This document shows, in pieces, positions 48,778 through 49,463 of a stretch of 64,000 nt of DNA (positions are counted from its first letter, which is position 1; the number at the start of each line of letters is the position of its first letter). The stretch is taken from the sequence record PZ296772.1; one strand, given 5' to 3'. Origin of the DNA: a phage. The notes beneath the pieces were generated by a model. The model saw only the letters and a program-made list of their open reading frames with translations, did not search any database and had not been told where the DNA came from. A program made the position numbers and the translations under genes.

Positions 48778-49008
48778 ATGTCCACTGAAACTATTGAAAA
48801 ACTGCAGTCTGAAATCGTAATTCTGAAATCTCGTATTCTTGATACACAAGATGCCGCCGCTCGTATTTCTGACGATTCTAAACTTCTTCAGAATACCCTA
48901 GCCCAGATTGCTCAACTGGTCGGTATTACAAGTGAATCTGTTAAACTGGAAGACCTGGTAGAAGCAGTACGTGAACTTGTTAAAGCTGAAACCGCAGAAG
49001 AAGAATAA
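48778..49008 (+). CDS. 57A: tail fiber assembly chaperone gp57A
   Basis: 76 aa coiled-coil; matches T4 gp57A. Confidence 0.88.
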
Positions 49009-49463
49009 TGAAATTTGAGGACTTTTCACAAGGCCTCTACGTCGCAGCTAAGTTTTCAGAATTAACACTTGATGCGCTGGAAGACCTCCAGCGCAAATTA
49101 AGAATTCCTAATCCAGTACCACGTGAAAAGCTTCATTCAACAATTTGTTATTCACGTGTAAACATACCATATACTACGTCTAGTGGTAGTTATTCTATTG
49201 CCGAATCAGGACACCTTGAGGTATGGAAAACTGACGACGGCGCTGTACTGGTTTTAGTTCTTGATTCCGAATATCTTAGATGTCGTCATCAGTACGCACG
49301 AGCTTTAGGTGCTACTCATGATTTCGACGACTACACTCCACATATAACGTTATCATATAACGTTGGCCAACTATCATTCAGTGGTGATGTAGCTATTCCG
49401 GTTATTCTCGACCGTGAATACAAAGAACCCTTAAAACTAGATTGGGCCGAAGATCTAAAATAA
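49008..49463 (+). CDS. 57B: gp57B / Acb1-like 2H phosphoesterase (anti-CBASS)
   Basis: 151 aa; two H-x-T motifs (LHSTI, PHITL) typical of 2H phosphoesterases; T4 position of 57B. Confidence 0.75.

Follow-up and report, generated by a model that had tools for sequence, protein, structure and literature searches.

Genomic organization of the acb1 locus

The window, by which we mean the whole 64,000-nucleotide stretch of phage DNA that was analyzed (sequence record PZ296772.1), carries gene 57B between the tail-fibre assembly chaperone gene 57A and the internal-protein gene ipI (Table 1). Its best nucleotide matches over 24 kb were to the Escherichia phages ChristianSchoenbein (96.8% identity over 97% of the query) and AV111, to Shigella phage Shf125875 and to RB69, and by its sequence the window is that of an RB69-like (Mosigvirus) coliphage. 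T4 has gene 1, 57A, 57B and ipI in the identical order. Further, the first three genes of this series have kept their order in eight of eight distant Straboviridae, where variable small ORFs, and often also tRNAs, come next. In most RB69-like relatives, the match to the window stops at about 49917-49925, just past ipI. The initial annotation had placed 57B at the entry to the hyperplastic region, directly before the first internal-protein gene, and both parts of this description agree with our findings: ipI is the next gene downstream, and the homology break near 49920 and the variable small ORFs after the internal-protein genes mark the entry to this region.

Table 1. Genes, protein motifs and intergenic elements around acb1 (positions in the window).
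Feature	Position	Strand	Evidence and remarks
Gene 1 (dNMP kinase)	48039-48773		Upstream of 57A; Pfam DNMK, E=1.4e-96
Gene 57A (tail-fibre assembly chaperone)	48778..49008	+	Pfam GP57, E=8.9e-25; context, outside the enzyme
acb1 (gene 57B) CDS, 151 aa + stop; 2H-phosphoesterase-family cyclic-oligonucleotide phosphodiesterase	49008..49463	+	ORF, Pfam, PDB, T4 identity, dN/dS
First catalytic motif, K-L-H43-S-T45-I-C (LHSTI)	H43-S-T45 at 49134..49142	+	Corresponds to T4 H44/T46; role after PMC9117128
Second catalytic motif, T-P-H112-I-T114-L-S (PHITL)	H112-I-T114 at 49341..49349	+	Corresponds to T4 H113/T115; role after PMC9117128
C-terminal lid, residues 144-151, LDWAEDLK, including W146 (T4 W147)	49437..49460	+	7 of 8 residues identical to T4 145-152, LDWADDLK
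46-nt element, copy 1	49477-49522		Directly after acb1
ipI	49541-49828		Next gene downstream of acb1; Pfam IPI_T4, E=2.6e-49
46-nt element, copy 2	49832-49877		After ipI
Second internal-head-protein-like gene (ip7 in some relatives)	49882-50157	+	Follows ipI; phrog_7673, E=3.1e-48
46-nt element, copy 3	50160-50205		Before ORF 50206

The start codon of acb1 in the ORF list of the window is an ATG, which shares one base with the TAA stop codon of 57A in a TAATG junction; in T4, the corresponding overlap is ATGA. The 151-residue product contains exactly two H-x-T motifs, LHSTI and PHITL, just as the initial annotation had read them, one in each half of the protein and spaced 69 residues apart. 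We estimated by shuffling the protein how often such a pair arises by chance: at least two HxT motifs occurred in 2.2% of the shuffles, and two matches to the stricter pattern (L/I/V/M/F/P)-H-x-T-(L/I/V/M/F) in 0.02%. Among the 46 ORFs of 100-250 aa in the six frames of the window, acb1 is the sole case with two HxT motifs. The motif pair alone is no more than suggestive; it is the family-level matches that make the assignment to Acb1 decisive.

Assignment to the Acb1 family

In Pfam searches, the 57B product matched PF23474 (Anti-CBASS protein Acb1) with E=1e-58 and 197.6 bits (curated cut-off 27), whereby protein residues 8-149 aligned to positions 1-144 of 144, i.e. to the full profile. The best structural matches, PDB 7T26 and 7T27, had E=2.5e-59 and covered window residues 9-148 with 64% identity over about 140-141 residues. 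These are the apo and the 3'3'-cGAMP-bound structures, respectively, of Acb1 from Erwinia phage FBB1 (Hobbs et al. 2022, PMC9117128). Because of the 64% identity to a crystal structure, we consider the fold settled and assign window Acb1 to the 2H phosphoesterase fold by homology to the solved Acb1 structure. A single-sequence AlphaFold2 model had low confidence, with a pLDDT of 42.4 and a pTM of 0.32, and a search of NCBIfam with window Acb1 found no matching model.

The T4 ortholog of this protein was found as a 3'3'-cGAMP-degrading enzyme by activity-guided fractionation and named Acb1 (PMC9117128), and the statement of the initial annotation that T4 57B has been reported as Acb1 is correct; a transposon screen has independently confirmed the identification of T4 57B as Acb1. 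The 2H-phosphoesterase signature of Acb1, which that annotation had proposed from the motif pair, is likewise borne out, since the Pfam, 7T26/7T27 and T4 alignments all agree with it. Taken with the residue comparison, gene order and selection analysis given here, we are highly confident that the gene is the ortholog of T4 57B/Acb1 (anti-CBASS protein 1) in an RB69-like (Mosigvirus) coliphage. As such it is an ordinary and already known ortholog, and a protein identical to window Acb1 has already been deposited for Escherichia phage PTK.

Public records of this family often use another name, which raises the question of whether the protein is instead a generic LigT-type 2H enzyme, a 2'-5' RNA ligase or 2',3'-cyclic nucleotide phosphodiesterase with a role in the repair of RNA or tRNA. 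The PHROG family of the protein (phrog_755) is labelled 'RNA ligase', RefSeq gives the same name to T4 57B and many of its orthologs, and one record calls an ortholog 'putative RNA 2',3'-cyclic phosphodiesterase'. There is also a weak match of window Acb1 to PF13563 (2_5_RNA_ligase2; E=0.026). However, this match is partial (residues 76-131 only) and reaches 15 bits against a cut-off of 27, whereas the Acb1 model is matched over its full length with a score far above its threshold. As its score lies below the gathering threshold of PF13563, the window protein falls outside the LigT / 2'-5' RNA ligase family, although it is of the same superfamily. LigT-type enzymes have the superfamily signature of two HxT/S motifs in common with Acb1, yet their substrates are RNA ends, whereas those of Acb1 are cyclic di- and trinucleotides. 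The contacts specific to cyclic dinucleotides in T4 (Y12, W74, F107, W147, E141 and the lid) are conserved in the window protein; moreover, the T4 ortholog was discovered as a cGAMP-degrading activity, which disappears from lysates upon deletion of acb1. The 'RNA ligase' labels, in contrast, are inherited superfamily names and not functions shown by test. We therefore judge the LigT reading extremely unlikely and reject an 'RNA ligase' identity, given that PF13563 stays below threshold while the Acb1 profile and contacts fit. The label in PHROG and RefSeq is a legacy misnomer derived from the superfamily.

Other 57B/Acb1 orthologs in public records are annotated as 'hypothetical protein', 'cyclic phosphodiesterase' or 'putative phosphodiesterase', so that the annotation is inconsistent overall. 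The present assignment thus corrects the functional annotation of a gene that is often recorded either as a hypothetical protein or under the misleading name 'RNA ligase'.

Comparison with T4, FBB1 and distant Acb1 proteins

Window Acb1 and T4 gp57B (NP_049750.1, encoded at L001:3953-4411 on the minus strand) are identical at 129 of 151 positions (85%), with 140 of 151 positives, no gaps and E=5e-103. T4 has an extra N-terminal methionine, by which the window protein is one residue shorter; T4 residue numbers are consequently those of the window plus one. In the work of Hobbs et al. (PMC9117128), the catalytic tetrad of T4, H44/T46/H113/T115, positions the scissile phosphate, Y12, W74, F107 and W147 stack on the bases, E141 contacts the adenine N6, and residues 145-152 form a C-terminal lid that closes over the ligand. 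This lid is required for activity (bioRxiv 10.1101/2025.08.21.671373).

All nine residues named by these authors are identical in the window protein (Y11, H43, T45, W73, F106, H112, T114, E140 and W146), and none of the 22 differences between the two proteins falls on any of them. A placement of the histidine motifs outside the catalytic positions, which would have spoken against Acb1, was thus not found; H43/T45 and H112/T114 align precisely with T4 H44/T46 and H113/T115, and the same positions hold in the alignment with the crystallized FBB1 chain. For a wider comparison, we aligned window Acb1 with the proteins of T4 and FBB1 and with eight divergent homologs encoded by phages of Acinetobacter, Shigella, Aeromonas, Vibrio, Enterobacter and Klebsiella (11 sequences in total). 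Y11 and the tetrad residues H43, T45, H112 and T114 are invariant in this alignment, in which identities fall as low as 33%, and E140 is almost invariant.

Overall, the window and T4 proteins thus have the tetrad, the base-stacking aromatics and the E141 equivalent in common, as well as seven of eight lid residues and the same gene neighbours; they differ in the 22 substitutions, and the window phage is RB69-like. FBB1 Acb1 has an identical HxT/HxT tetrad and identical equivalents of Y12, E141 and W147, but carries phenylalanine and tyrosine, respectively, at the positions of W74 and F107, which are hence aromatic in both proteins. The FBB1 and window proteins further differ by a one-residue insertion after the β-hairpin, around window residues 79/80.

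The homologs of Enterobacter phage HK6 (L008:2459-3082) and Klebsiella phage Roth90 (L009:2459-3082) are 207 aa long, with a C-terminal extension of about 60 residues. In both, a lysine replaces the lid tryptophan (T4 W147), while the HxT/HxT tetrad is kept; the lid or the handling of the substrate may therefore differ from canonical Acb1 in these two proteins.

Selection and distribution

At the DNA level, acb1 is 74.6% identical to its T4 counterpart, and 76 of the 115 differences lie at third codon positions. By the Nei-Gojobori method, dN is 0.13 and dS 2.08, which is near saturation, giving a dN/dS of 0.062. A copy of at least 95% identity is found in 153 phage records, and a homolog in about 1,490.

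These values bear on whether the gene could have decayed or lost its catalytic function and persist only as a passenger of 57A. The T4 gene is non-essential on hosts without CBASS, so its loss would be tolerated there. Against decay, however, stand the intact full-length reading frame, the intact catalytic tetrad and contact residues, the 153 records with closely similar copies, and a dN/dS of 0.06, even though synonymous sites are near saturation. With a ratio this low, purifying selection is strong and decay of the gene can be ruled out. We accordingly give this explanation next to no probability and, with the frame and tetrad intact, reject a pseudogene; the gene is maintained as an acb1 ortholog.

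Predicted substrate range and mechanism

The biochemistry of Acb1 has been studied on the T4 and FBB1 proteins and on nine further acb1 homologs (Hobbs et al. 2022, PMC9117128). No metal is needed for the reaction, whose products, GpAp among them, are linear, and cGG and cA4 are not cleaved; all ten homologs tested for it, some of them far more divergent than the protein studied here, cleave 3'3'-cGAMP and cAAA (PMC9117128). T4 lacking acb1 replicates normally in the absence of CBASS and more than 300-fold worse in its presence, and the transposon screen led to the same view of the gene's role. Our search of the literature for an assay of an RB69/Mosigvirus-type Acb1 found none; by analogy to the T4 and FBB1 experiments, the chemistry, substrate range and anti-CBASS phenotype of window Acb1 would be those of its characterized relatives.

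When a CBASS host senses infection, its CD-NTase synthesizes cyclic di- or trinucleotides (3'3'-cGAMP, cUA, cAAA, cAAG), and these signals switch on a lethal effector. Window Acb1, as a small, metal-independent enzyme of the 2H fold, is expected to take the cyclic rings into a U-shaped pocket, where Y11, W73, F106 and W146 would stack on the bases and E140 would read the adenine N6, after which the C-terminal lid would shut over the ligand. The enzyme would then strain the adenosine, whose 2'-OH would attack the 3'-5' bond in a step catalyzed by H43/T45 and H112/T114. This should lead via a 2',3'-cyclic phosphate intermediate to a linear product, which would not activate the effector, so that abortive infection would be averted. 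Acb2 (T4 Vs.4), which is present in the same phage group, also removes CBASS signals, but this sponge sequesters them rather than hydrolyzing them and has an unrelated fold.

By extension from T4, the window phage is predicted to resist CBASS systems whose signals are adenosine-containing cyclic di- or trinucleotides. It may at the same time be a potential trigger of decoy-nucleotide defences of the Panoptes type, as T4 Acb1 also degrades 2'3'-c-di-AMP and, when over-expressed, can trigger Panoptes (bioRxiv 10.1101/2025.08.21.671373). Both properties are relevant to the choice of RB69-like phages for therapy and to work on host range.

A true Acb1 could nevertheless have shifted its substrate range from that of T4 through the 22 substitutions, for instance such that 2'3'-c-di-AMP is spared and Panoptes left untriggered while CBASS signals are still cleaved. 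The differing residues lie in the core or on the surface, and with 22 of 151 positions changed, the fine substrate preference could differ. In related 2H phosphodiesterases, selectivity is set by the protein core and not by the lid, and one of them, the viral PDE-9, cleaves 3'3'-cGAMP and largely spares 2'3'-c-di-AMP (bioRxiv 10.1101/2025.08.21.671373). The activation of Panoptes by over-expressed T4 Acb1 would also provide a selective pressure for such shifts. Yet deletion of acb1 from T4 left the Panoptes defence unchanged, so that the gene, when expressed at its natural level, may create little pressure of this kind. In addition, the named ligand-contact residues are all identical to T4, 140 of 151 positions are identical or conservative, and cleavage of 3'3'-cGAMP and cAAA was common to all ten homologs of Hobbs et al. 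PDE-9 itself (PDB 9Q2G/9Q2Y, deposited as 'Anti-CBASS protein Acb1') shares the 2H fold group and two HxT motifs with window Acb1, but its sequence match is marginal (E=0.0027) and its lid is N-terminal, not C-terminal. We regard a shifted substrate range as very unlikely and favor an Acb1 with the specificity of its T4 ortholog; if true, a shift would represent a natural case of specificity tuning among very close orthologs.

Expression signals

The adjacency of 57A and 57B, found in the window, is also seen in T4 and in the eight distant Straboviridae. From the one-base overlap of stop and start codons, we infer that acb1 and 57A are probably co-transcribed and translationally coupled; the overlap would also imply co-expression of acb1 with gene 1 as well as 57A.

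A scan of 47300-52000 gave sigma-70-like sites (17 versus 16.9 expected) and terminator-like sites (4 versus 2.4 expected) at about the frequency of chance, and did not identify a promoter specific to acb1. Ahead of gene 1, a weak MotA-box-like CGCTTCT (47987-47993), which differs from TGCTT(T/C)A at two positions, precedes a TATAAT (48006-48011) by 12 nt, and together they form a speculative promoter candidate. Within gene 1, the late-promoter consensus TATAAATA occurs at 48416-48423, and this candidate could drive late transcription of 57A and 57B.

Over the whole window, the MotA-box core TGCTTNA was found 81 times versus 48 expected, and TATAAATA 18 times versus 8 expected, an excess that fits middle and late transcription of the T4 type. 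Up to position 36739, the TATAAATA sites are nearly all on the minus strand.

Intergenic elements and the variable region

The spacer after acb1 contains the first of three copies of a 46-nt element (Table 1), which are in register with each other. Each consists of GTTTACA, a stem formed by an inverted repeat, whose loop and 3' arm hold a TG-extended -10-like box, and then CCTATCAAA. Two of the three copies fold markedly better than shuffled sequences, with ΔG values of -16.8 and -18.7 kcal/mol and z-scores of about -3.2 and -3.4. The three elements agree with PeSL (promoter-early stem-loop) cassettes, which have been described as shuffling units in the hyperplastic regions of T4-type phages and have the consensus TTTACW-N17-TAYWAT in the T4/PST group (PMC4122927). 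The 57B-ipI spacer of T4 has an equivalent element with a different stem sequence, which suggests that it is the hairpin itself that is conserved.

The ORF of the second internal-protein gene, as listed from 49882, begins MEPKMKTF. However, it repeats 31 nt from the start of ipI (49537-49567 versus 49890-49920, 81%), by which the true start of this gene is likely the ATG at 49894, giving an N-terminus MKTFNEFISE that resembles MKTYKEFISP of ipI. It is in this second internal-protein gene that the match to RB69 and many relatives stops.

Between 50206 and 51582, the ORFs have no match in Pfam, and the PHROG families to which they belong are of unknown function. Past the internal-protein region, the window has only two tRNAs, Met(cat) at 51662-51735 (+) and Arg(tct) at 51742-51818 (+), whereas the equivalent place in T4 is occupied by eight tRNAs, two small stable RNAs and segB. 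Within the variable region, the 14-nt junction GGTGAGTAAATGAA, which combines a Shine-Dalgarno-like GGTGAG, a TAA stop and an ATG start, is present in identical form at 50404-50417 and 51058-51071, at two consecutive ORF boundaries, and its 10-nt core recurs at the start of ORF 50206 (50207-50216).
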